A stretch of 64,000 nucleotides of DNA, from the NCBI GenBank assembly GCA_009729775.1, contig GCA_009729775.1_4081.1, one strand, 5' to 3'. Within the stretch, counting starts at the first letter, position 1. Each line of letters opens with the position of its first letter. Under the pieces are notes generated by a model that saw only the letters and a list, made by a program, of their open reading frames with translations, searched no databases and was not told where the DNA came from. Of this stretch, positions 1 through 61,161 are shown one piece after another. The DNA is from Escherichia coli (GTDB lineage: Bacteria; Pseudomonadota; Gammaproteobacteria; Enterobacterales; Enterobacteriaceae). Made by a program: the position numbers and the translations under genes.

Positions 1-497
1 TCAATATCAATGTATTTCCTTGCGATATCTGCGTTTATGGACAAATACAAACTACCACCTGTCCTCTGACTCAGGATTCCATCTATCTGCGATATAGGAT
101 GGTTGTTATTGAGGATAAGCATTATTGTACTTATCTTGTGTGCTAATAACTCTATCTCATTCATAATTTACCTTATGGATTCGGGTGCAATAAATGATCT
201 TGATAACTTAAATGCTCTTGTGATATTGCACTTAAATAATAACTAAAATTTTCAATACCACCCTTTAAATGTATATTGTAATACAACTTAATACTTACTA
301 ATAAAGAATCATTTAAATCATTTATTGCTTTTGTATTAACCACTTTCATTAATGTTCTTCTCTTAAAAATCGTTTGATAGCATAATCTAAATAAAATTCA
401 TAACACATGCTATCTCTGTTCTTTATCCATATTTTGTAATCGGATTTTATATTACTTAACAAATAATTTGTATTAATTGTGTAATAATCTAATCGCC

Positions 498-887
498 CTA
501 ATCGTGCCATTTAATAGGATACTCCTTTCCTTGTACTACATAAGATATAATCCATCCGTAATGAATAGGACTATTCTTTTCTCCTTTAGGAATAAAATAT
601 AAAGATGTACTAGGATTATAACTGAATAAATCATTATTGTCAAATGTAAAATGAGATAACGTTATCTTCCTTGTACTTGGACTAATAACATTCTTAACAC
701 CAAACACGGTATCTTGATATTTCTCTGAAAATTCAAACAATGCATCTGTAATTAAATCATTGAATTCTATACATAATGGTTTAAAAGAACCATCATTATC
801 TTTGAATTCCTTATATAAAGAGCTTCTTGTATTCAAAAGAAATATTACTTTTTTAAGATCCTGAACTATTTCTGGATTCATATTCAT
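498..887 (-). CDS. hypothetical protein (129 aa)
   Basis: ORF-track minus ORF at the distal end of the paralog operon; start may be an internal Met. Confidence 0.5.
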   Translation of the reverse strand: MNMNPEIVQDLKKVIFLLNTRSSLYKEFKDNDGSFKPLCIEFNDLITDALFEFSEKYQDTVFGVKNVISPSTRKITLSHFTFDNNDLFSYNPSTSLYFIPKGEKNSPIHYGWIISYVVQGKEYPIKWHD

Positions 888-1119
888 TTATCTCATTCTG
901 TATCTTAAGCATCAAAATTTGCATATTAATTTTTTGTACAAGGTGCTTGATAAATTTCTGTGCCATTTCTTCTTGTTCTTTTGTACCAAGATAAAATAAC
1001 AGATTAAATTCTGATAATCGCAAAGAAAAATCTTCATCACCACCCTTTAAACAAAAATCCCTGTACTTTGTAGCGTACAAATATTGGTTTACCTTTTTAT
1101 AATACCCTGTGTTTTGCAT
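853..1119 (-). CDS. family-A small paralog (88 aa)
   Basis: Contains FYLGTKEQEE variant of the LGTNYQE family motif; packed end-to-end with neighbours. Confidence 0.55.
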   Translation of the reverse strand: MQNTGYYKKVNQYLYATKYRDFCLKGGDEDFSLRLSEFNLLFYLGTKEQEEMAQKFIKHLVQKINMQILMLKIQNEINEYESRNSSGS

Positions 1120-1307
1120 ACTATCTCCGTTCGCAACGAATTTATATAATAATGAACAAATTGTTCTTGTGAACGTGTTCCAAGAAAAATAAACATATCA
1201 AACTCTGTTGTTTTTAAATTCAATGCATCTTTTGTAAAATTCCTGTTGAATTCCCTGTACTTTTGGGTCTTCCATTCTTGATTAATTGTCTTGTATATCG
1301 ATTTCAA
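1089..1307 (-). CDS. family-A small paralog (72 aa)
   Basis: IFLGTRSQEQ motif; overlaps neighbours by a few nt. Confidence 0.55.
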   Translation of the reverse strand: MKSIYKTINQEWKTQKYREFNRNFTKDALNLKTTEFDMFIFLGTRSQEQFVHYYINSLRTEIVCKTQGIIKR

Positions 1308-1608
1308 TGATTCTCCCTGACATACCTTGTATTAGCTTATCATACATATCGAGCATCACTTTTTGAATATTAATTAGTACTGGCATCGTGCAAATATCAA
1401 TGTCGTATACTAAGCTGTACTGGAATAATTCATCTTCCTGCATTTGTACTAAATTAGGTAAAGGATAATTGTCTGCCTCTTCATCCTGATACTTGAAATG
1501 CATAACACCATCCTTTTTGTACAAAAGAATGTCAATATCACCTAACTCTTCTGCATAACCAAAAATACATATACTCGATGTTTTTGCTATATTAAATTTC
1601 ATATACAT
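1282..1608 (-). CDS. family-B protein (108 aa), ELFQYSLVYD motif
   Basis: Shares the acidic-FQYSLVHD motif with 1611, 2230, 2582, 41600, 57592 and 63199. Confidence 0.55.
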   Translation of the reverse strand: MYMKFNIAKTSSICIFGYAEELGDIDILLYKKDGVMHFKYQDEEADNYPLPNLVQMQEDELFQYSLVYDIDICTMPVLINIQKVMLDMYDKLIQGMSGRIIEIDIQDN

Positions 1609-1610
1609 CC

Positions 1611-1925
1611 TTATACATAAATTTGATAGACATTTTGAACAAAATACTTTGGAAGACTACTATATGATATCATCTGCCTTTGTACTTCCTTCATCTCTTC
1701 CAATGTCAATCCCAAAGAATCATCGTGTACTATCATGTACTGAAACTCGTCTTCTTCAGAGATATCAAATAAATTCGGTACTGCAATTATATCAATACCT
1801 ACCATCCAAAAAAAAGAATTATTACTTTTTCTGTACTCAAAAAAATTCAAAGAAGAACCACTCTGTAAATCAGATACCATAATGGAACATTCATCGTTAC
1901 GTACAATACAATTGAATTTACGCAT
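1611..1925 (-). CDS. family-B protein (about 104 aa), DEFQYMIVHD motif
   Basis: Start adjusted to internal Met (MRKFN...) that abuts the stop of the upstream gene (TAATG overlap). Confidence 0.5.
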   Translation of the reverse strand: MRKFNCIVRNDECSIMVSDLQSGSSLNFFEYRKSNNSFFWMVGIDIIAVPNLFDISEEDEFQYMIVHDDSLGLTLEEMKEVQRQMISYSSLPKYFVQNVYQIYV

Positions 1926-2170
1926 TATCTCCACCTCTCTCCGTCTGTACAAGAGTACTGGTACGTTGTCGTTAGGGTAGGGACCATGTTTGTAATGGGC
2001 ATGTTGTTAACAATAACCGTAACAGGCATAAGAATCGTCTCTTCTCTACTCTGTCCTGTCCTTGTGCAATTCATCTTTTGCATTTCATCTGAATCCATGA
2101 AATACAATACAAATGGTGCAATCCCAAGAACAATACACAAGACGATAAGGAAATTTAAAAAATTTAACAT
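1925..2170 (-). CDS. small membrane protein (81 aa)
   Basis: Hydrophobic N-terminal helix MLNFLNFLIVLCIVLGIAPFVLYF. Confidence 0.5.
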   Translation of the reverse strand: MLNFLNFLIVLCIVLGIAPFVLYFMDSDEMQKMNCTRTGQSREETILMPVTVIVNNMPITNMVPTLTTTYQYSCTDGERWR

Positions 2171-2229
2171 AATTTTTACCCTATGATTAACGTTAGTGTA
2201 CTATATCAGTAATGAAAAGTACTATCAAG

Positions 2230-2616
2230 CTAGTATTGCACTGTTCTAATGAAAGTGCCTGAACTCATGGATTTAAGCTTATGAACCTCTTCCTGTATAC
2301 CCTTGATTAACCCTAAAGGTATAGGTACATCATGTACTAAGCTGTACTGAAAGTATTCTTCTTCAGATAAAGTACTAACATCTGGAACTCCAATTTTAGT
2401 TAGATAATCTTGATGTGTTGACCAATAAATTATATCTTCAGTAGAATTGTACTCCCCATATACTGAACAATATTGATGAATATCTTTCCTGTACCCTTGA
2501 GCAATAAAGAACTTATCTACTGCATTACCAGCATTAATAGAATTCACTTCGATTGTCACAGTACTTGAGCTTGTATAACTCTTAATACTCAACTGTGTGT
2601 TCTTCATAATCACCAT
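2230..2616 (-). CDS. family-B protein (128 aa), EEYFQYSLVHD motif
   Basis: ORF-track minus ORF; family motif present. Confidence 0.55.
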   Translation of the reverse strand: MVIMKNTQLSIKSYTSSSTVTIEVNSINAGNAVDKFFIAQGYRKDIHQYCSVYGEYNSTEDIIYWSTHQDYLTKIGVPDVSTLSEEEYFQYSLVHDVPIPLGLIKGIQEEVHKLKSMSSGTFIRTVQY

Positions 2617-2926
2617 TAGGCTCCTGTTTAGATTCTTTCATTAGTACTATCATCTTATGTACTAATGGCATAGGGAACTCTAAATCCCATACTAATGATT
2701 CCTGGAAGTATTCCTCTGGTGATAAAGTACTTAAATCTTTAATATCAACGTGCTTGTATATTTTATTTTCGTAATTAACAAATGATATATATAAATCACT
2801 AACATAAGAATCATAGGTAATTGTGAATGGCTTACCCTTGTAATCCATTACATCTCTACATAGACTACTTTTGATATATGTATGTTCAAATGATTTATAT
2901 ACCTTGAGTTGTATATTAGTTTTCAT
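2582..2926 (-). CDS. family-B protein (114 aa), EEYFQESLVWD motif
   Basis: ORF-track minus ORF; family motif present. Confidence 0.55.
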   Translation of the reverse strand: MKTNIQLKVYKSFEHTYIKSSLCRDVMDYKGKPFTITYDSYVSDLYISFVNYENKIYKHVDIKDLSTLSPEEYFQESLVWDLEFPMPLVHKMIVLMKESKQEPNGDYEEHTVEY

Positions 2927-3191
2927 ATTTCTCTTTATTAGCTTGTTTGGTTTTATAGTGAATTAAATCTATTAATGTAATCAAGTACAACTTCAAAAAG
3001 TACTCTTGATGGTTCGTACCTAATGATACAAAGAATTTATGCTCATAAATTAAAACCTGTTTCACTTCAAAAGGACACTTAATCCTCTGTATAGGTTTAA
3101 GTAAATGGTAGTACTTGTATAATCTATTATGCATTTCTAATTCAGATAGTACTTTCATATTAAACACATACTCCATTAGCTGTAGCATCAC
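2916..3191 (-). CDS. family-A small paralog (91 aa)
   Basis: SLGTNHQEYF motif. Confidence 0.55.
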   Translation of the reverse strand: MMLQLMEYVFNMKVLSELEMHNRLYKYYHLLKPIQRIKCPFEVKQVLIYEHKFFVSLGTNHQEYFLKLYLITLIDLIHYKTKQANKEKYEN

Positions 3192-3381
3192 GTAAAGCTG
3201 TCAAATACTTCTGTACTGCTTGCTCTTGCTTATTTGTACCTAAAAGTATATACATCCATAATTCACTGTAATGTACATCTTGTGTATAAGGGTTGTTGTA
3301 ACTTTTTGATAATATAGCATCAAATTCAGATGCATGAACCCTTGTGAACTTAAGCATATCTTGTTGTGTTATGATTCTCAT
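3160..3381 (-). CDS. family-A small paralog (73 aa)
   Basis: LLGTNKQEQAV motif. Confidence 0.6.
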   Translation of the reverse strand: MRIITQQDMLKFTRVHASEFDAILSKSYNNPYTQDVHYSELWMYILLGTNKQEQAVQKYLTALRDATANGVCV

Positions 3382-3593
3382 ATCTTTTCCTGTATAAGCT
3401 TCTTAAGAATCTCAATATATGAATTAACAGTTCTCTCTTGATGCTGTGTTCCTAAGAGTGTCAGTACTATCATATCTGAACGCAAAAGATTTTTTTCAAG
3501 TTCACTTATATCAGTTCTTGAATCAAGTGCCATATATTTGTGATTATTCTTCCTGAATAGTGCCAAGTACTCTTGATTTGATATTTCCTTCAT
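3378..3593 (-). CDS. family-A small paralog (71 aa)
   Basis: LLGTQHQERTV motif; ATGA-type overlap with neighbour. Confidence 0.6.
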   Translation of the reverse strand: MKEISNQEYLALFRKNNHKYMALDSRTDISELEKNLLRSDMIVLTLLGTQHQERTVNSYIEILKKLIQEKI

Positions 3594-28363: not shown

Positions 28364-28555
28364 TTACTTCCTATATATAAGCATTAAGATATAGTAGTAC
28401 TGATTATACTGTACATTCTCTTTAATATTATAAGGGTCTATCGCAATCTCGGTACATCTGTTAAATGCATATCTATTAAATGCCAGTGGAATTATAGATC
28501 TAATCCATACTTGTTCATTTTCTTTTAGTTTACTTATATAGAAGTTTTTATACAT
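28364..28555 (-). CDS. family-C small paralog (63 aa)
   Basis: One of about 10 tandem about 65-aa ORFs; MYKNFY start, C-terminal LIYRK. Confidence 0.5.
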   Translation of the reverse strand: MYKNFYISKLKENEQVWIRSIIPLAFNRYAFNRCTEIAIDPYNIKENVQYNQYYYILMLIYRK

Positions 28556-28570
28556 AGTATTCTCTATTAA

Positions 28571-28753
28571 TTAATATGATAGTACTAGTGTTAGTACTGA
28601 GCACAATTGTTCTTTATAGTTCTTAGGGTATATAGAATCTTTTATGCACTCATTGAAGTGCCATAGGTATAATCTTGGGTCGCATTCTTTATATATTCTT
28701 ACGGGGACGAATGTTAGTTTTCGTATATAGAATTCTTTATGTTCTTTATTCAT
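28571..28753 (-). CDS. family-C small paralog (about 60 aa)
   Basis: Start adjusted to MNKEHKEFY... Confidence 0.5.
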   Translation of the reverse strand: MNKEHKEFYIRKLTFVPVRIYKECDPRLYLWHFNECIKDSIYPKNYKEQLCSVLTLVLSY

Positions 28754-28754
28754 A

Positions 28755-28943
28755 TTAGTACCTGAATATAAGTAGGATAGTGTTATATAGCTGGTCATAT
28801 GTACTACTATTTTCTATACTTCGTTCTATGCAGTTATTGAATCCCAGTACTGCCAAATCGTTATCCAGGGGGACTTTGTATCTGGCGTAGTGTTCAAAAA
28901 TGCTGGGGAGAAATTGTTTGTAGTATTCTTTGTGGTTATTCAT
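28755..28943 (-). CDS. family-C small paralog (62 aa)
   Basis: MNNHKEYY start. Confidence 0.55.
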   Translation of the reverse strand: MNNHKEYYKQFLPSIFEHYARYKVPLDNDLAVLGFNNCIERSIENSSTYDQLYNTILLIFRY

Positions 28944-28944
28944 A

Positions 28945-29127
28945 TTAGTACCTGAATGTTAGCATTACTACGTAGTACAGCATATATGGATTATCATCGT
29001 ATATGAGCGTGTACTTAGTACATTGTTGGAACATTATCTTTGCGTGATCTTTTATTCCTATTGGTTCTGTTGGTATATGGTGCTGGAGATGCATAGGGAT
29101 TTTATCCCTGTAGTATTCTTTATGCAT
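28945..29127 (-). CDS. family-C small paralog (about 60 aa)
   Basis: Start adjusted to MHKEYYRDK... Confidence 0.5.
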   Translation of the reverse strand: MHKEYYRDKIPMHLQHHIPTEPIGIKDHAKIMFQQCTKYTLIYDDNPYMLYYVVMLTFRY

Positions 29128-29779
29128 AGTTTGTAATATACGTAATGAGGTGATGCATTTTCTTATTAGTACTGATAAGTTCCTGTACATGTTTTGTTAG
29201 TTTGTACGCGTTTTTATAGAGTCCTGGATTATCGATTACAGTACTGTACATGAATTCTTCTTCTGGTGTTAATTCTTTGTTTTGTAGTTCTTTTAGGAAT
29301 TGCAGTACTGTATCAGTTTCGTTAGTACGTTGCTTTTGGAAGAAGTGCATGTTATCGTGTATTTTTTCTGAACCCATGCAGTACATATCGCCGATTTGGA
29401 ATTGTGCAGTACTGATATCATGGGTGCTATTACAATTCCCGAAGAAGTATACATTCCCGAAAGATAGAATTATAGTGCACGGGATATTATCCATGTGTAT
29501 ATAGATAGATGCATTCTTTAGTGCTTTTGTGCTGGTATTAGTACTCAATACTTTTAAATCAGTATTATAGATATTAATAAAAGCAAGAGCTATATTATTT
29601 TTCTTCAAGTACGATTTGAGGTTCTTAGATACGAGAACATTTCTGGATTTTTTCTTTTTATTTCGTTTCTTTAGTACATTTGGGTGATACATATATGCAG
29701 ATGTAATAGATTCTGCTTGAATACTGTTGAGGTACTTAAAGTGCTTAAGGTATTGTTTGCTGTGTGCATTAAGTTTCAT
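29120..29779 (-). CDS. hypothetical protein (219 aa) embedded in family-C array
   Basis: ORF track; no recognisable motif. Confidence 0.55.
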   Translation of the reverse strand: MKLNAHSKQYLKHFKYLNSIQAESITSAYMYHPNVLKKRNKKKKSRNVLVSKNLKSYLKKNNIALAFINIYNTDLKVLSTNTSTKALKNASIYIHMDNIPCTIILSFGNVYFFGNCNSTHDISTAQFQIGDMYCMGSEKIHDNMHFFQKQRTNETDTVLQFLKELQNKELTPEEEFMYSTVIDNPGLYKNAYKLTKHVQELISTNKKMHHLITYITNYA

Positions 29780-29977
29780 TTGGTTTCCTTTATACAGATG
29801 CCAGGGCGAGGATTTCCCTGTAGGGATTATCTTGTGTTAGTACAGCATAAATGCAGCTATTGAGATTAATATTTTTAGTACTTTTTGTTCCTAGGTTGTA
29901 GTACTTCACGAAGGTGTCGTACATGAAACGGTCGTTAATGCTTATTCTTTCTATATAGTATTCTTGCATAGTGTACC

Positions 29978-30160
29978 TTAAATAGCGATTAGTTTCATTA
30001 CTTCTCTGTATGTATACTTTTCGTTTTGTGCATCTCTTGTGACGACATATAGGAAGGTGTGTTTATCTTTTTTGTTCCCGCAATTGTAGAAAATATTGAA
30101 CTTATTGAAGTTGAATCTTTCGGCGTGTTGTAGTTTAGTTAAATAGAATTCTATGTTCAT
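29978..30160 (-). CDS. family-C small paralog (60 aa)
   Basis: MNIEFY start; KYTYREVMKLIAI C-terminus like 30169-30354. Confidence 0.5.
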   Translation of the reverse strand: MNIEFYLTKLQHAERFNFNKFNIFYNCGNKKDKHTFLYVVTRDAQNEKYTYREVMKLIAI

Positions 30161-30168
30161 TTTATTCC

Positions 30169-30354
30169 TTACATTTCAATAAGTTTCAGTACTGCTCGGT
30201 ACGTGTACTTAGTTGTCAGTGCTTCTTTAATAGAAATACAGAAGTAATGTTGTTTGTCTCTTATACTGCCGCGTTTGTAGTACCACACATGGGAGTTGTG
30301 ACTGTACTTGTCTCTGTCGGATAGTTGTTGGTAGTAGTAGCTTATATGATTCAT
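30169..30354 (-). CDS. family-C small paralog (61 aa)
   Basis: KYTYRAVLKLIEM C-terminus. Confidence 0.5.
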   Translation of the reverse strand: MNHISYYYQQLSDRDKYSHNSHVWYYKRGSIRDKQHYFCISIKEALTTKYTYRAVLKLIEM

Positions 30355-30406
30355 TGTAATGCAATTATCCTTACTATATTAAAGTACTCGATCCTTGGTG
30401 TACTTT

Positions 30407-30601
30407 TTAGAACTTAAAGATGAGGTTCAGGATAGAGCGGTACTTAGTTGCAGGGAACGTATGTTCTATTGCATCACGTGTCTCCATCCTGAAATCGTAA
30501 TTGTAATATAGATTATTCTTTCTCATAGGTCGTGCTAAAGAGAATGATAGCTGTTCTTGCTTGTGTAGTTTACTACAATAGAAATCTTTATGATTATTCA
30601 T
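30407..30601 (-). CDS. family-C small paralog (64 aa)
   Basis: MNNHKDFY start. Confidence 0.55.
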   Translation of the reverse strand: MNNHKDFYCSKLHKQEQLSFSLARPMRKNNLYYNYDFRMETRDAIEHTFPATKYRSILNLIFKF

Positions 30602-30803
30602 AGAAGTAGATTAGTCCTATTAAACCTGAGTACATAATATTTTTGTTATTGCATTCGATTGCTTCTAGAGTACTACGTATACAATTATTAAAGCAATCTC
30701 TACCGAAGTGAGTATTGGTACTTACAGGTGATACACTCCTTAGAAACAATTGTTCTTCGTTGCTAAGGTATTTGGTGTAGAATTCTTTATGTTCAGTATT
30801 CAT
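30594..30803 (-). CDS. family-C small paralog (69 aa)
   Basis: MNTEHKEFY start. Confidence 0.55.
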   Translation of the reverse strand: MNTEHKEFYTKYLSNEEQLFLRSVSPVSTNTHFGRDCFNNCIRSTLEAIECNNKNIMYSGLIGLIYFYE

Positions 30804-30804
30804 A

Positions 30805-31008
30805 TTAGTGCTCGATTAATAGGGTCAGGATATAATAGTATTGCATACTTTCTGCCCCTTGTAAAGCATTTCTTATTTTATTATTCCTGTACGAGTTCAG
30901 GAGTTTAGGACAACGTTTGTAGTCTATAAAAGTATTTTGTGTATACAGTAGGCTTTCTCGTAGACCTTTTGTTGGTAGTGCATCGATGTAGTACTGTTCA
31001 ATGTTCAT
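30805..31008 (-). CDS. family-C small paralog (67 aa)
   Basis: MNIEQYY start. Confidence 0.5.
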   Translation of the reverse strand: MNIEQYYIDALPTKGLRESLLYTQNTFIDYKRCPKLLNSYRNNKIRNALQGAESMQYYYILTLLIEH

Positions 31009-31232
31009 ATAGATAGCAGTACTAAGATTTTTGATAATTGTTTATTGCTATCCCCGCAGATGTTGCTGTGTAAAATACTCACAATGAGGGTATCAATTGC
31101 ATTGTTCATCATAAGGGTGCATCCTGGACTATTATAATTTTTTAGCTCAATTAGCCACGAACTATCCGCGAGAAATTCCCCGTACTCTAGTTCATTTAGA
31201 GTATTGAGGTAGTACTTAAGAGTATTTGTCAT
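31005..31232 (-). CDS. family-C-like small protein (75 aa)
   Basis: ORF track; first gene of the minus-strand array, divergent from the RCC1 block. Confidence 0.5.
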   Translation of the reverse strand: MTNTLKYYLNTLNELEYGEFLADSSWLIELKNYNSPGCTLMMNNAIDTLIVSILHSNICGDSNKQLSKILVLLSI

Positions 31233-31334
31233 GTGTAGTTCTCCTTATATTCCTTCTATAGTACACCAGTACTGAAAGGATGTCAAGGGTTTTCTTTATG
31301 GGGTAAATATGATATAATGAATAAGGAGGGATTT

Positions 31335-32483
31335 ATGTTACCTTTTGCAAGAATGATGAATTACGGGAATATTGCCCCTGGTGATGATGGACGTTTTAAA
31401 ATATATTCCAGTGATTCCATGTATCTTCATGATACTTATACTGATAAGTTGTATGCATCTTCTGCGACGAATTGGGGTACTGGAACAGGTGTAGCATCGA
31501 GTAAATTTATTCTTTGTGCGGAGAATGTTAAACGAGTTCTATTGGAAGATAACAGTAGTGATTGTCAATTGTACGAAGAGAAAGGTACGGGAAAAGTTTT
31601 TATCACTGGCAACACGAAGGCATTCACTGGTGTAACTGATAGAAAAACTTTGTGGACGGAATGTACTACGTGGATAACATCAGGTGGTATTAATGTTTCT
31701 GATATAAAATACATGAGTAGTTTTAATGATATGAAGGTAAATTTGATAACAAACGATGGTACATTGTATTGTTGTGGAGCTAACAATAACTCTAACCTAT
31801 CATCATTTGGTGATGGTACAAACATTAATTCTTTTAACACATTCAAAAGGGTAGATACTATAACTTCGGTTAAAAAGGCAGTTGGTAACATATACCTAAA
31901 AGAAGATAATACTTTATGGGGTTGTGGTTTTAACTATTACTATCAGTTAGGTACAGGCAATCAAACTTCTATTACTGGGGTGACGATGATTGCTTCGGAT
32001 GTTATAGATTTTGATGTAAGTTATCAGAGTACATTTTTTATTAAATCAGATAATAATTTGTACGCATGTGGTAAACAGTTCGGTGCACAATACGGGAACG
32101 AATTTGGCACAGGTGGTACTTCTTCATCTACAGATATACAATACAAAACTCCAACATTATTGAGTTCAGGAGTTTATACTTTATATACTTGTGTTAGTAA
32201 CATGGCATCTCATATTGTCAAAAAAGATGAAGTTATGTATGCATCTGGTTCGAATGGGTTTGGTCAATTAGGTGTTGGTAATAATATTAATCAGTACTCC
32301 TATACTCCTTCGTATACTTCTTTTAATAGTTCGTGTGATTTGGTACGCAGTCCATCTGGATCACTTATACTTACGGATACTGGAAAATTATATTATTGTG
32401 GCCCTGCAATATTAGTAATGGGGGGAATTGCTGGACAAAACATTCTTAGTTATACAGAAGTAGATATGTCATTTATACAATGA
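31335..32483 (+). CDS. RCC1-like beta-propeller repeat protein, paralog 1 (382 aa)
   Basis: Start at MLPFARM with AAGGAGGG RBS; repeated G-x-N-x-x-GQLG-x-G type motifs. Confidence 0.75.
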   Translation: MLPFARMMNYGNIAPGDDGRFKIYSSDSMYLHDTYTDKLYASSATNWGTGTGVASSKFILCAENVKRVLLEDNSSDCQLYEEKGTGKVFITGNTKAFTGVTDRKTLWTECTTWITSGGINVSDIKYMSSFNDMKVNLITNDGTLYCCGANNNSNLSSFGDGTNINSFNTFKRVDTITSVKKAVGNIYLKEDNTLWGCGFNYYYQLGTGNQTSITGVTMIASDVIDFDVSYQSTFFIKSDNNLYACGKQFGAQYGNEFGTGGTSSSTDIQYKTPTLLSSGVYTLYTCVSNMASHIVKKDEVMYASGSNGFGQLGVGNNINQYSYTPSYTSFNSSCDLVRSPSGSLILTDTGKLYYCGPAILVMGGIAGQNILSYTEVDMSFIQ

Positions 32484-32491
32484 ATTAATAT

Positions 32492-32520
32492 GCCAGTACT
32501 TGATACTGGCTTTTCTTATT
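32492..32520 (+). terminator. rho-independent terminator of RCC1 cassette
   Basis: GCCAGTActtgaTACTGGC hairpin followed by T-run; repeated after every paralog. Confidence 0.7.
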
Positions 32521-32533
32521 GTATTAAATATAG

Positions 32534-32556
32534 TATAATGAATAAAGGAGGGAATT
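32534..32556 (+). promoter_or_regulatory. conserved cassette promoter/RBS (TATTAAATATAGTATAATGAATAAAGGAGG)
   Basis: TATAAT box and AAGGAGG RBS conserved upstream of each RCC1-like gene; promoter class not resolved. Confidence 0.5.
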
Positions 32557-33666
32557 ATGTTACCTTTTGCAAGGATGGTTAAGTACGGAAATATTGTACC
32601 TGGTCCTAAAAATATAATTAAAGTTGGTGCTTCTACACAAGGACAATTCTTATTGACTGATTCACATGATTTATATTACATAGGTAGAAATCAAGGTGGT
32701 GAATCTGGAAATGGTAATACCAACACGGTATCTTCATGGATATTAGTAAGTGCAGATGTTTCTAATTTTTTCGTGGGTGATCGTACACTTGTTATTATTA
32801 AAAATGATAATACGATATGGACATCAGGTCAAACGTACTGGTTCTCATCTTCTACAACTACTTCTTACAGTACTGTATTAGTTGAAAGAACTAATTGGTT
32901 TACCAATGCTATACCAGTAAGTGAAATTGCTAATATTGTATGTACAAATGGTTTAATATTTGTACTTAGCACTAATTCAGTACTCTATGGTGCAGGAGAT
33001 AATGGATATCGTGGTTCTTTGGGTATTGGTTCCTCATCAATTTACACATTAACTCAATGTGCTACGAACGTTCGTAAAGTAATGACCAATGCGAATGATA
33101 GTATGTATCTTACATTAGATAATAAGCTATATAGTTCTGGATGGAATAGTAGTGGGCAGCATGGTACGGGGAACCAAACACAAATTAACACTTGGGGATT
33201 GCGTAGTTCTGGTGTAATCGATGCAGCCATTGGTGGTAATGCATTAAATTACTATAATGGTACATCATATTTCGTATGTGGTCAAACTCCAAACTTTCTT
33301 AGTTCAGGTACGACTACATTCCGTGCAGTTCCTGTAAGTACCTTGCCTAATAGTTCTCCATTGTTTATGACGAATTCACCTGCCTTAAATACTGCTACAC
33401 AAATGGTAATTACTAGTACATATCAGAAGGGTGTTGGGGCGAACCGTGGTTTGGGATTAAACAATTCCCAAACTGGTGCTATATATAGTGCTACCAATTT
33501 ACAATTACCCGTTGAAGTTAGTGAGATTAGGGATGTTCTTTTTAGTGATGGTTTGACATCGTTATTAACCAAAAATGGAGATGTGTATAGTACTGGATCG
33601 TATTACGCCATTCCAGGTGCAATCGAGGATGTTGCAGTCTTTACTAAAATTGATTTACCAAAATAA
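32557..33666 (+). CDS. RCC1-like beta-propeller repeat protein, paralog 2 (369 aa)
   Basis: MLPFARMVKYGNIVP start; SGWNSSGQHGTGN and similar repeats. Confidence 0.75.
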   Translation: MLPFARMVKYGNIVPGPKNIIKVGASTQGQFLLTDSHDLYYIGRNQGGESGNGNTNTVSSWILVSADVSNFFVGDRTLVIIKNDNTIWTSGQTYWFSSSTTTSYSTVLVERTNWFTNAIPVSEIANIVCTNGLIFVLSTNSVLYGAGDNGYRGSLGIGSSSIYTLTQCATNVRKVMTNANDSMYLTLDNKLYSSGWNSSGQHGTGNQTQINTWGLRSSGVIDAAIGGNALNYYNGTSYFVCGQTPNFLSSGTTTFRAVPVSTLPNSSPLFMTNSPALNTATQMVITSTYQKGVGANRGLGLNNSQTGAIYSATNLQLPVEVSEIRDVLFSDGLTSLLTKNGDVYSTGSYYAIPGAIEDVAVFTKIDLPK

Positions 33667-33673
33667 CATAATG

Positions 33674-33704
33674 CCAGTACTTGATACTGGCTTTTATTTT
33701 TTGA
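33674..33704 (+). terminator. rho-independent terminator of RCC1 cassette
   Basis: GCCAGTACTTGATACTGGC plus T-run. Confidence 0.7.
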
Positions 33705-33736
33705 TTAAATATAGTATAATGAATAAAGGAGGAATT

Positions 33737-43723: not shown

Positions 43724-44061
43724 TAGTACCTCGCATCAGGAACTTTAGCACGTAACTTATGAACGACTGGGAACAACAACAAACTTACATATGCAATAGT
43801 TGAACCCCAATAGAATACTAATACAATTGGTTCACCATTAGAACGGAAACCTCTACTAATCATTGAGTAGTGAATAATAGGCATAATCATCGCCATACCA
43901 AACCATGCGTGTAATTTTAATTGCAGCATGTTATCAGCGATGAATACTGAAATTGGTCGTTTGAAGAACCACATCAGAAAGTAGAATCCAGCACTAATAA
44001 TATAGTACATGGTACTAACTTTCATATACCACGGCAGTAAGTGTAAAAAATATTCCATCAT
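43723..44061 (-). CDS. small membrane protein paralog (112 aa)
   Basis: WFFKRP motif after first helix. Confidence 0.6.
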   Translation of the reverse strand: MMEYFLHLLPWYMKVSTMYYIISAGFYFLMWFFKRPISVFIADNMLQLKLHAWFGMAMIMPIIHYSMISRGFRSNGEPIVLVFYWGSTIAYVSLLLFPVVHKLRAKVPDARY

Positions 44062-44405
44062 TCCTCCGGTATCTTGTTTCGAAGGTCAATCATAACACAA
44101 CAAAGTTTAATGATCAAGTGAAAAACTACACATATCATACCAATTGTTCCATAAACGACTGAAAAAGCAGGTAGTGCTTTTCCGGCTAGAACAGCCACAA
44201 TACATGCAATCAATGTTGATGCAAACAACGATTGATTAATGAAAGAATTCATAAAATCTTCACCATTACGCTTATAGAATTGTCGTTTAAAATACCATCC
44301 TAGAAACATAACTACCCAAAATGTTACATAACCTGTTAGAATAATCCCTGCAATTGAATGTGCAACTGGACTACTCCTTAAAAACTCAAGATAAGCTTCA
44401 AACAT
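44058..44405 (-). CDS. small membrane protein paralog (115 aa)
   Basis: WYFKRQFYKRNGEDF motif. Confidence 0.6.
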   Translation of the reverse strand: MFEAYLEFLRSSPVAHSIAGIILTGYVTFWVVMFLGWYFKRQFYKRNGEDFMNSFINQSLFASTLIACIVAVLAGKALPAFSVVYGTIGMICVVFHLIIKLCCVMIDLRNKIPEE

Positions 44406-44743
44406 TAGAAGTCTCCGCGAATTTTATCTCTACCATGAATAATGAGATGGATTAAGTATACAACTAACCAAATGAACAACCCAAAGAATACAATATATTG
44501 TGAGATTGAGTTCAAGTGAGGATTGGCACAATAAATTAAGTGTGCCATAAGACCAACAATTGCAAACAAACCTTGAACAAGTGTGTAAAGAACTAGTGAT
44601 GAATTCCTCACTGGATACAGTTTAAAAACAATTTTCTTTTTAAAATACCACAGTACTACAACCAGTGCATGATAAAAGAAAAAACCAAAAAGATAAATCA
44701 AAGTAATACTAAGCATTGTATCTGACTTAAAGAATGTTAACAT
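44405..44743 (-). CDS. small membrane protein paralog (112 aa)
   Basis: Close paralog of 44743-45084 (WYFKKKIVFKLY, C-terminal RDKIRGDF). Confidence 0.65.
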   Translation of the reverse strand: MLTFFKSDTMLSITLIYLFGFFFYHALVVVLWYFKKKIVFKLYPVRNSSLVLYTLVQGLFAIVGLMAHLIYCANPHLNSISQYIVFFGLFIWLVVYLIHLIIHGRDKIRGDF

Positions 44744-45084
44744 TAGAAATCCCCTTTAATTCTATCACGAGCTTTAATAATAAAGTATATGCTACATACC
44801 AACAACCACACCATTAGACCTGAAAACACAAGATATTGTGTAATGTGTGGTGTATTATCAATTTGTAACATGTAAATCGCATATGTCATCACACCAAATA
44901 AAATAAACCCACCTTGGATAATACTATATAAAACTAAGACTACATTATCATCCGAATACAATTTAAAAACAATTTTCCTTTTAAAATACCACAGACTAAT
45001 TACAATTGAATGATAACACAAAAATACAAACATGTAAATTAGCGTGATACCAAGCATTGTATCTGAATTAAAAAACTCAAGCAT
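44743..45084 (-). CDS. small membrane protein paralog (113 aa)
   Basis: WYFKRKIVFKLY, C-terminal RDRIKGDF. Confidence 0.65.
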   Translation of the reverse strand: MLEFFNSDTMLGITLIYMFVFLCYHSIVISLWYFKRKIVFKLYSDDNVVLVLYSIIQGGFILFGVMTYAIYMLQIDNTPHITQYLVFSGLMVWLLVCSIYFIIKARDRIKGDF

Positions 45085-45151: not shown

Positions 45152-45925
45152 TTAAATTTTCTCAAGGAACATATTATCTGCCATTGACTCCCAATCGTAT
45201 GGGAATTTATTATACAGACCAGCGATAAGTACTGGCATACGCAGAGAAGGTGAACGCAGCTTTTCTTCGTTGTTCAGCATCCAGTTTAAGATAGCTTTAC
45301 AACCATTTTTATTAACCCCATTGTTCTCAAGAATATTAGTCTTGTTCATGATGTTCTCAATGTGAATCATAACTTCTTCGTTAGTGAACAGTTGAAGATC
45401 AACAAAGATACTACGAGTAATCAGTGCATCAATGTGTGGTGCTAAACTGCTTTTACCTTTAGCAATCTGTGACAGGTTTTTGTTCGTCAGGAAGATTACC
45501 TTCCCACGGAATTCAAACTGCTTAGGAATACCCTGCTGTTCCAGGTACTTCCCAGAAGTTGCATAAGATACAACCCGCTTCTCTGAAGTATCCAGTACTG
45601 CTTTGAGCAAGTCAATGTTGGTTTCATCGCTGAAGATATCAACGTCATCAAGTAACAGTACTGATGCGGCATGACGTGAACGATACAGTGCTTCGTACAG
45701 ACCCATAGTGGTTACTTTACCGCTGATCTTTTTATAGTCGATTTCAAAGTTATCATCAGCTTTCTGTAAACGCTGGTCAACGTTATAAGTTTTACCAACG
45801 CCACCTTTACCAGATACAATCAGGGAATTGATTGAATTAGCTTGGGTATCAAGTAAACATTCCAAAGCTGCCATCATACTGTTGAAGTTCTTTTCGATTT
45901 GGATTGCTTTCTCTGTACGGGTCAT
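45152..45925 (-). CDS. P-loop NTPase (257 aa), deviant Walker A KGGVGKT
   Basis: SGKGGVGKTY Walker A, LLLDDVD Walker B-like, FLTN sensor-like; ParA/MinD-like or AAA-like, exact family not resolved. Confidence 0.55.
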   Translation of the reverse strand: MTRTEKAIQIEKNFNSMMAALECLLDTQANSINSLIVSGKGGVGKTYNVDQRLQKADDNFEIDYKKISGKVTTMGLYEALYRSRHAASVLLLDDVDIFSDETNIDLLKAVLDTSEKRVVSYATSGKYLEQQGIPKQFEFRGKVIFLTNKNLSQIAKGKSSLAPHIDALITRSIFVDLQLFTNEEVMIHIENIMNKTNILENNGVNKNGCKAILNWMLNNEEKLRSPSLRMPVLIAGLYNKFPYDWESMADNMFLEKI

Positions 45926-57591: not shown

Positions 57592-58188
57592 TCATAAATC
57601 ACGAACAATATTCATTAAACACAATTTAGGTTTTATAGCATTCAACACCCATATGCATTCTTTGTAAGTAGCTATTATATCATCTAAATGCTCAGTTACA
57701 ATGCTTTCTTGAAAATATTCTTCATCATTGAGCTTTGCTAATTTAGTAACATCACACGTAGGCACTATAGGTCTGGATTGTACACCCATTCCATTATTGA
57801 TATTAGTGAAATGTACAAAATGGTACTTCACAACACCTTTATCTAGATTTATTATACATGACAAATTTTCCAACTCAGTTAGCTTTTTATTACAAGTAAC
57901 ATTAATGAAACCAGCATTATAGGCTCTATAATCATCTACTGATATCTCAAGATCATTACGCTCAAATATAAGTGAGATGAGTTGGTCGAGTGGTTTGACA
58001 TTCATATATTTTAATGAATTTACGTATGATACTTCAATCTTAGATGAAATTATCTTTTTACTAAGTGCAGTTAAATCTTTGTTAGATTTAACTGTTAAAA
58101 CAATAGGTTTAAACCTAGAACTTTTGTTCTTTTTTGATACTTTAAAACGACCTTTACGATTCATAATTTCCTCAATTAATAATTTCAC
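57592..58188 (-). CDS. family-B-like protein (198 aa), EEYFQESIV motif
   Basis: ORF track; family motif. Confidence 0.6.
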   Translation of the reverse strand: MKLLIEEIMNRKGRFKVSKKNKSSRFKPIVLTVKSNKDLTALSKKIISSKIEVSYVNSLKYMNVKPLDQLISLIFERNDLEISVDDYRAYNAGFINVTCNKKLTELENLSCIINLDKGVVKYHFVHFTNINNGMGVQSRPIVPTCDVTKLAKLNDEEYFQESIVTEHLDDIIATYKECIWVLNAIKPKLCLMNIVRDL

Positions 58189-60060: not shown

Positions 60061-60411
60061 TCAATCCTTATATTTACACAAGCCACCAAAACTAGTTTCT
60101 TTAGCACCACGACGCATCATAACTAATTTAGCATATTGTGTACCATTACTATCTTCATATACATCTACTTCAATAAACGCTAAGAAGTTAGGATCTGTGT
60201 CGTTAGAAAACTCAGTGAAGCTAATGTCGCCCACTGTATGCTCTTTAACAAACGTATATGATTGTCCATCAATATATACAATATCTCGATCGTCACTATC
60301 ACCTTGATAGATATGTTTAATATTACCATCTGTACAAACTAAACCTTCCAATGGTTCAGCATATGACAATCCACACATTAACATACATACAAAAAATAAA
60401 ATAATTTTCAT
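60061..60411 (-). CDS. secreted protein with signal peptide (116 aa), paralog of 60802-61161
   Basis: MKIILFFVCMLMCGLSYA signal; shared central block. Confidence 0.6.
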   Translation of the reverse strand: MKIILFFVCMLMCGLSYAEPLEGLVCTDGNIKHIYQGDSDDRDIVYIDGQSYTFVKEHTVGDISFTEFSNDTDPNFLAFIEVDVYEDSNGTQYAKLVMMRRGAKETSFGGLCKYKD

Positions 60412-60801: not shown

Positions 60802-61161
60802 CTATATTTCACAGTGTAAGTTCAATTTATCTATATCTAGGTCACGGCGTACCGATGAGTCCAAGTAAATTACTATATAGATATCACCATTACCAGTTCT
60901 TGGGTCTACAATTAATATTACGTTTGCTAATGTACCAGAATCATCTCTATAAGTCGAGATTTTTTTATTACCGATAATACTTTCTACTTTAAAACGATAA
61001 ATCACACCATCAACAACTATATTTTTACCATTTCTAGGGTCGTTAGTCAATACATGCCACGTTCCCTTAGTACTACGACAATATGTTTCTGCTGGTGCAC
61101 CATAACTAAAACATGAAAATAATGCACACACAAGTGCTATTAATTTTATATAACTCTTCAT
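60802..61161 (-). CDS. secreted protein with signal peptide (119 aa)
   Basis: MKSYIKLIALVCALFSCFSYGA signal. Confidence 0.6.
   Translation of the reverse strand: MKSYIKLIALVCALFSCFSYGAPAETYCRSTKGTWHVLTNDPRNGKNIVVDGVIYRFKVESIIGNKKISTYRDDSGTLANVILIVDPRTGNGDIYIVIYLDSSVRRDLDIDKLNLHCEI

Follow-up and report, generated by a model that had tools for sequence, protein, structure and literature searches.

The stretch of DNA analysed here, referred to as the window, comprises 64,000 nucleotides of contig GCA_009729775.1_4081.1 from an Escherichia coli assembly (GenBank GCA_009729775.1), and belongs to a jumbo coliphage of the 121Q/PBECO4/UB type, being 93–98% identical to phages of the genus Asteriusvirus, namely UB, 121Q, PBECO4, phAPEC6, and slurp01 (~350 kb). 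Our subject is a set of its genes, all on the minus strand and all labelled "hypothetical protein" in the records of the related Asteriusvirus phages, whose products carry a short motif centred on the residues FQ.SL[VI] and preceded, in most of them, by an acidic run. A six-frame regular-expression scan of the whole window found FQ.[SM][LI][VI] in exactly seven long open reading frames (ORFs), all on the minus strand, the two extra matches being confined to non-coding frames of 10 and 29 codons. These seven ORFs are the same genes that an earlier note on this DNA had named as carriers of the motif, and its motif strings and coordinates stand; two of the gene starts have been corrected, and the list was not the full set, given that an eighth, divergent member had been overlooked and that the family extends far past the window. 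When the residues of a greedy coding set (150 ORFs, 18,873 residues) were shuffled 2000 times, the motif appeared 0.06 times on average and twice at most. Chance occurrence was therefore rejected, and a motif observed seven times, well beyond this expectation, is taken as real.

Four of the genes are clustered between positions 1282 and 2926. The first (1282–1608) encodes a protein of 108 amino acids with an isoelectric point (pI) of 4.2 and the motif EDELFQYSLVYD at 1408–1425; it matches phrog_13866 (E 6e-40) and A3, a profile of small members introduced below (E 5e-24), and its ratio of non-synonymous to synonymous substitution rates (dN/dS) against orthologs is 0.2–0.55. The second (1611–1925; 104 amino acids; EEDEFQYMIVHD at 1728–1745; A3 E 4e-17) lies in an ORF that reaches back to a TTG at 1952, and its start is most likely the ATG at 1925, which overlaps the upstream stop codon (TAATG) and is accompanied by a Shine-Dalgarno-like GGTGGAG, the database ortholog beginning with MRKFNC. 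Between the second and the third gene lies an ORF that is not a member (1925–2170, minus strand, 81 codons): its hydrophobic product, probably a membrane protein, matches neither the family profiles nor any Pfam family. The third member (2230–2616) has 128 amino acids, the motif EEEYFQYSLVHD at 2335–2352, and an A3 match at E 3.5e-26, and the fourth (2582–2926), the one whose structure was modelled, has 114 amino acids, the motif PEEYFQESLVWD at 2690–2707, and a dN/dS of 0.05–0.26 against orthologs.

The remaining genes are scattered over the window. The divergent eighth member (29120–29779) encodes a basic protein of 219 amino acids (pI 9.5) with the motif variant ELTPEEEFMYSTVID, in which FM replaces FQ; the same FM.ST variant is found in three paralogs of phage UB. 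A possible distant member (41600–42262) is likewise basic (220 amino acids, pI 9.2) and carries SDLMFQYSLIHKD at 41726–41743 without the acidic run. The gene at 57592–58164 encodes 190 amino acids with a basic N-terminal extension and DEEYFQESIVTE at 57697–57714; its ORF reaches back to a GTG at 58188, and its most likely start is the ATG at 58164, where the database ortholog begins. The last one (63199–63717; 172 amino acids; EENVFQQSLIHN at 63334–63351) is acidic (pI 4.7) and has a dN/dS of 0.04 against phage UB. The general pattern [ST]-E-E-x-x-F-[QM]-x-S-[LT]-[VI], placed in the C-terminal third of a protein of 100–230 amino acids, is thus found in eight of eight genes, in 41600 without the acidic run and in 29120 with FM. 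Against the orthologs in UB, phAPEC6, and 121Q, dN/dS ranged from 0.04 to 0.73 and was below 1 in every comparison; therefore, these are real genes, most of them under purifying selection and some under relaxed constraint.

Homology among the motif genes

The four clustered proteins are mutually similar (BLASTP E 1e-5 to 1e-8 over 30–61 residues), and the 41600, 57592, and 63199 proteins show similarity by BLASTP only around the motif. Two profiles were run against 584 ORF segments of the window: A3, built from small members and containing none of 41600, 57592, and 63199, and a leave-out profile made from 51 further members, from which the tested proteins were also absent. While the four clustered genes matched the family profiles at E 1e-12 to 1e-26, the 63199 protein was recovered both by A3 (E 9e-6, profile positions 20–97) and by the leave-out profile (E 4e-6), and the 57592 protein by the same two (E 6e-7 over profile positions 27–87, and E 8e-3, respectively). 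The 29120 protein, which A3 did not hit (E 1.6), was found by an iterated profile (E 1.9e-4) and by the leave-out profile (E 2.5e-7, profile positions 10–125). The next-best ORF of the window in the A3 scan had an E of 0.16. Motif-centred comparisons with hhalign gave 85% over 26 columns for 57592 and 67% for 63199. Judged by these profiles, 63199, 57592, and 29120 are members of the family, and the shared domain proposed in the earlier note is supported, since the clustered four are homologous to one another and profiles lacking the distant proteins recover these three.

Seven of the eight genes were in this way placed in the family by independent profiles. The 41600 protein reached only E 6e-3 with A3, over the motif plus the second helix, and E above 0.5 with two other profiles; it was found neither by the iterated profile nor by the leave-out profile (no match at E<1 with the latter), and hhalign gave it a probability of 78% over 22 columns and 71% over 72 columns. 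An ortholog that is 43% identical keeps the string FQYSLIH. The AlphaFold models of this protein are weak, the best having a predicted local distance difference test score (pLDDT) of 71.7 and the other four 33–57, and a Foldseek search with the weak model returned its own ortholog as the sole match. Membership of 41600 is, judging from these comparisons, plausible but unproven. The possibility that the motif recurs in non-homologous contexts with no extended similarity, which the earlier note had given as the outcome that would overturn its proposal, is for this gene neither borne out nor dismissed, its likeness to the others being limited to 22–72 columns around the motif.

The same note had suggested that the shared domain is combined with different partners. 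This is only half borne out: in the typical member of about 110 amino acids the motif and the variable N-terminal part form one compact domain in the AlphaFold model described below, rather than a conserved module with unrelated domains attached, and the longer proteins have extra N-terminal sequence, basic in 29120, 41600, and 57592. These extensions belong to no recognisable family. MAFFT aligned the three basic proteins collinearly, with the small common strings SKxLxxLxKNxI and NxYFxxxCN, and for a common N-terminal part hhalign gave nothing significant and phmmer nothing at all.

Expansion by tandem duplication

The size of the family was estimated from a census in which A3 was iterated over all six-frame ORFs of the window and of the 300 kb of phage UB that lie outside the window's region. 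At iteration 6 there were 58 hits, with one or two still being gained per round, which correspond to about 54 unique proteins, all encoded on the minus strand. Nearly every one of them has [ST]-E-E-x-x-F-Q-x-S-[LT]-[VI] at the aligned position, for which reason the census cannot be put down to profile drift. With 515 genes annotated in UB, some 54 members amount to roughly 10% of the gene complement. The members have 103–234 amino acids, with the motif 22–92 residues (median 41.5) from the C-terminus and an N-terminal part of 58–175 residues, and their pI is below 6 in 80% of cases (median 4.7–4.9, vs. 8.0 for the ORFs of the window generally). The superfamily is one of small (~100–230 amino acids), mostly acidic proteins without an evident signal peptide.

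The genes are arranged in UB as a near-continuous array of 28 kb (159.8–187.5 kb), a second cluster at 268–292 kb, and singles at 90, 106, and 146 kb. Position 1 of the window corresponds to about position 183,638 of UB, so the 28-kb mega-array ends, at its distal tip, with the four clustered genes. They are, as had been described before, embedded among genes of another type: at 853–1307 and from 2916 to ~6100 of the window, on the minus strand and on either side of the four, runs a tandem array of ~70–95-amino-acid proteins with an L-G-T-N-Y-Q-E-like motif (family A, typically ~75 amino acids), with which the four are interleaved; three of its members were scanned against Pfam, with no match. 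Gene content in the cluster varies between near-identical phages, the 1611 gene being missing or replaced in many of them (77–82% coverage) and UB having an extra gene of 810 bp. The family has grown by tandem duplication into arrays of dozens, with later spread to other sites. A scan for sigma-70 promoters and terminators in window positions 1–3400 gave fewer sites than shuffled sequences. The sole 12/12 match to the sigma-70 consensus in the first 3.4 kb (TTGACA, a 17-nt spacer, TATAAT) lies at 643–615 on the minus strand, inside an ORF of 129 amino acids (498–887).

To look beyond these genomes, a profile (A2) built from the region around the motif in the seven proteins was searched against 1.84 billion representative proteins, which yielded 61 relatives at E<=1e-3, nearly all of 100–135 amino acids. 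In all 61 the motif lies in the C-terminal third and the profile match in the C-terminal half. Their consensus reads [IV]-P-D-L-[ST]-x-L-S-E-E-E-[LYF]-F-Q-[YLEQ]-S-L-V-[WH]-D-x-x-[IFL]-[PD]-x-x-L-[VL]-x-x-[IV]-Q ... [FY]-x-x-x-[VI]-[EQ]-Y-COOH. Mean column identity is just 15%, and against this background the F and the Q are present in 61 of 61, E-E-E in 50–55, S in 51, L in 53, and V or I in 57; a second conserved Q, in the second helix, is found in 52, and the C-terminal [VI][EQ]Y is also conserved. By tblastn, the consensus matched only ~350-kb phages of Escherichia, Salmonella, Klebsiella, and Erwinia, from which the named cluster members also come; the cultured sources are all Rak2-like jumbo phages, and the remainder are metagenomic. 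The superfamily is particular to Rak2-like jumbo phages, in this case to those of E. coli in the Asteriusvirus group. A locus search of IMG/VR confirmed 2 of 55 pattern matches, both in 121Q, a low figure that is explained by the reliance of the confirmation step on one sequence.

Domain databases do not recognise the group as such. There is no Pfam family for the seven proteins, the 61 relatives, or the 55 genomic paralogs; sequence-profile searches of the PDB with A2 and A3 returned only noise, and single-sequence searches with the 2230 and 41600 proteins retrieved close orthologs only. In PHROGs, the four clustered proteins fall in or near phrog_13866, which is also matched by 59 of the 61 small relatives, and the three distant ones fall in private PHROGs; weak matches to further PHROGs centre on the motif, and the 55 paralogs are divided among at least 39 PHROGs, with no function assigned to any of these families. 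The proteins of phrog_13866, 9317, 12674, 15629, 17453, 29217, and 33987, and of about 30 more, are the same as those of the present family. They are kept separate and without annotation, and neither PHROGs nor Pfam has the helix motif that unites them, their fold, or the superfamily of ~54 copies. The name DUF2283 (PF10049) is given by UniRef to a database ortholog of the 2582 protein, whose hairpin ITYDSxxxDLYISF resembles the DUF2283 signature. This assignment was rejected: the match scores 13.9 bits vs. a gathering threshold of 23 bits, covers profile positions 2–26 of 49, and concerns two 2582 orthologs only, while none of the 61 relatives reaches E<=1 and none of the 55 paralogs E<=0.01. 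The name DUF2283 has also been used for FseA homologs (PMC4755241), which may differ from the Pfam family. The ortholog so named, a near-identical copy of the phage protein, is deposited under Actinomadura adrarensis as "DUF2283 domain-containing"; most likely that assembly is contaminated with phage DNA and the domain label reflects the sub-threshold match.

Several other groups of small or repeated genes occur in the window. The 29120 member sits within a minus-strand array (28364–31232) of about ten ORFs of 60–81 amino acids, a third small-protein family in which many begin with MN..HKEFY and end in a hydrophobic L.LI..Y/F tail. Directly downstream of 41600, at 42304–45084 on the minus strand, eight consecutive paralogous ORFs of 104–141 amino acids consist almost wholly of hydrophobic segments and probably encode multi-pass membrane proteins; they adjoin a 257-amino-acid protein (45152–45925) with weak, sub-threshold AAA-type matches in Pfam. 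The sole plus-strand block of the window (31317–41203), across which the GC skew flips, holds eight paralogous genes of ~360–450 amino acids with RCC1-like GxNxxGQLG repeats, labelled "regulator of chromosome condensation" or structural proteins in related phages. At 60061–60411 and 60802–61161, on the minus strand, two paralogs of ~117 amino acids have N-termini resembling signal peptides (MKIILFFVCMLMCGLSYAEP and MKSYIKLIALVCALFSCFSYGAP), and ORFs for small membrane proteins are interspersed with them.

Predicted fold and possible roles

Structure prediction, proposed in the earlier note as a way to see whether the motif marks a common fold or an active site, was informative for the 2582 protein. 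An AlphaFold2 model based on the 61-sequence alignment gave a single domain (pLDDT 82.6; predicted template modelling score 0.76) with strands at residues 2–11, 16–22, 34–39, 44–51, and 56–62, helices at 70–78 and 86–98, and a strand at 107–113, i.e., a five-stranded beta-region followed by two C-terminal helices and a closing C-terminal strand. The motif, PEEYFQESL in this protein, is the first of the two helices (70–78) and is predicted with the highest confidence in the whole model (pLDDT 94–97). In such a helix, S/T-E-E-E would form the N-capping box and the acidic first turn, and F, S, L, and V would lie on the side that packs against the sheet. The secondary structure, the pLDDT, and the conserved hydrophobic pattern together suggest that both helices pack on the sheet and that the conserved core of the fold is formed by the motif. 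A Foldseek search of viral models with the 2582 model matched only uncharacterised proteins of slurp01, RaK2, and PBECO4. An active site is not a likely reading of the motif, which forms a helix where the fold is predicted best and has the F and the Q as its only invariant residues.

We consider it very probable that these genes form one superfamily, expanded in tandem, with the motif helix in the core of a common fold. What the proteins do can be proposed only tentatively. The paralogs would keep the helical core while the sheet and the N-terminal extensions diverge to 10–25% identity, and the different surfaces so displayed on a common scaffold would bind different host or competitor proteins inside the infected cell, with a role in host takeover or anti-defence. 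Non-enzymatic binding is suggested because no residue of a catalytic type is invariant, the S, the D, and the acidic run all varying across the paralogs, and host takeover or anti-defence fits because the proteins are small, acidic, and encoded in long co-directional runs of small unannotated genes. Taken as a whole, an expanded superfamily of non-enzymatic binders built on the motif helix is the best explanation we can offer, and a reasonably probable one.

A number of points weigh against this explanation. The fold is confidently modelled for one member only, and the burial of the motif helix in it is a reading of secondary structure, pLDDT, and hydrophobic pattern. An invariant glutamine and a conserved acidic run are more than a core helix strictly requires, so that the motif may also be a shared interaction site. 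The link of 41600 to the family is motif-centred and statistically marginal, and the promoter scan is uninformative as to the timing of expression. That the proteins are absent from virions is suggested only by the text of one mass-spectrometry paper on phAPEC6, in whose main text the orthologs gp463c, gp465c, and gp466c are unnamed (PMC7247149). The binding or anti-defence role itself is drawn from size, charge, expansion pattern, and genomic setting, there being no annotated homolog.

The excess of conservation in the motif is the reason why its use for docking is the main remaining rival, even if we think it unlikely. The two helices would then be an element that plugs the paralogs into a shared hub while the variable N-terminal part picks the cargo, in the manner of F-box proteins or, in a narrower form, Q-x-S-L-[VI] would be a sliding-clamp-binding peptide of the QL[SD]LF type. 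The invariance of F and Q and the presence of the helix-2 glutamine in 52 of 61 relatives, despite a mean column identity of ~15%, are in keeping with docking, as is the fact that among the orthologs of 41600, too, conservation is highest in the motif region and that 41600 has little else in common with the family. Possible hubs are also at hand, phage UB being annotated with clamp-loader or polymerase parts and with a ClpA-like protein, a protease, and a protease adaptor protein; the last three and a DnaJ-like protein are encoded outside the window, at UB 43.9–46.2, 132.9–133.6, and 314.1–315.3 kb. However, the motif is predicted as a helix with conserved hydrophobic flanks in the most confident part of a compact domain, not as a flexible or terminal peptide such as those that bind the clamp, and in most members the profile similarity runs on into the flanking strands and the second helix, as expected of a fold core. 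The bacterial clamp-binding motif (QL[SD]LF or QLxLxL) is a poor fit, since Q-[YLEQ]-S-L-[VI] differs from it at positions 2 and 5 and lies in a predicted helix 22–92 residues from the C-terminus. A combined reading, in which an F-box-like two-helix module joins ~50 paralogs, each with a beta-sheet or N-terminal surface of its own, to one hub or, in a milder form, ~50 acidic decoy inhibitors share one scaffold, strikes us as rather improbable. The hub in the first variant may be the ClpA-like unfoldase, adaptor, and protease set of the phage, or a host machine; in the second, each paralog may neutralise a different DNA-binding or defence protein of the host.

Nor do we give much credit to the view that the paralogs are mere tandem duplicates filling the headful capacity of an enlarged capsid, with no individual function and a motif kept for folding. 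The differences in array content among close relatives and the relaxed constraint in some pairs (dN/dS 0.55–0.73) are in keeping with such filler, but paralogs at 10–25% identity still keep their reading frames open, orthologs are 85–99% identical in phages from different continents with dN/dS mostly of 0.04–0.3, and relatives are also known from phages of Klebsiella and Erwinia. A catalytic or metal-binding centre made up of the acidic run and Q, S, or D is highly improbable: E-E-E, S, and D are strongly conserved beside the invariant Q, yet across the ~54 paralogs S gives way to M, A, Q, N, D, C, or L, and D to N, E, K, T, or P, and the acidic run varies, which leaves only F and Q near-invariant; no enzyme family or fold was matched, and it would be unusual for a single enzyme to be present in fifty diverged copies. 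Least probable of all, to our minds, is that the motif is a cleavage site of processed or packaged proteins. Prohead proteases of the T4 gp21 type follow the site rule L/I-x-E. That rule is fitted by [LM]-[ST]-E-E-E (as L-S-E|EE), the phage has an annotated prohead maturation protease, and EEYFQ resembles the ENLYFQ of 3C/TEV-type sites (E-x-x-F-Q|). Either site, L-[ST]-E included, would nevertheless lie midway in a folded domain, and UB has no 3C-like protease among its annotations; the residue after the Q is Y (27), L (13), E (9), or Q (4) in the 61 relatives, whereas 3C/TEV cleavage needs a small P1' residue (G, S, or A). A 3C/TEV-type site was rejected on these grounds, P1' not being small and the site lying in a helix of the folded domain. 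The silence on gp463c, gp465c, and gp466c in the phAPEC6 virion paper points the same way.

Returning to the superfamily of putative binders, its expansion has parallels in the literature. About 10% of the RaK2 proteins are paralogs, according to the report on that phage (PMC3622015), and tandem arrays or a load of paralogs have been reported for 121Q and phAPEC6 as well; the likeness is in the expansion, none of these papers giving a definition of the present family, its motif, its fold, or its function. The array reported for 121Q may be the present one, that of the ~75-amino-acid "LGTNYQE" family, or another. A further parallel is the lineage-specific expansion in Bacillus phage G, in which the zinc ribbon is present in ~35 copies (Iyer et al. 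2021, PMC7824862) and where, as here, one small domain has been amplified to tens of copies in one jumbo phage and binding or regulatory roles have been proposed. The present family differs from it in having another fold, no metal ligands, an acidic rather than nucleic-acid-binding character, and another phage clade as its host lineage. The passages found in the same comparative study of jumbo phages do not describe it, and our searches of the literature, whether for an account of the family or for transcriptomes of Asteriusvirus, returned nothing specific. The family is a well-delimited, lineage-specific, expanded set of unannotated jumbo-phage genes, of a kind that is already known.

Roughly a tenth of the genes of a 350-kb phage appear to fall in a single superfamily that domain databases have not recognised as such. 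The helix motif and the profile merge at least 39 PHROGs, each listed as of "unknown function", into a single unit that can be tested and has a confident fold model. Much of the unannotated gene content of Rak2-like jumbo phages can be approached in this way, and these phages are under development as therapeutics against E. coli, Klebsiella, and Salmonella. If the docking variant of the combined reading were true, these phages would carry a combinatorial adaptor arsenal that sends many host or defence proteins to a common fate. If the paralogs are diversified binders of host or defence proteins, they would be a compact source of new inhibitors and a clear case of an arms-race gene family driving genome gigantism, and, if they are not, the superfamily would still be a well-delimited example of phage genome growth by tandem duplication.

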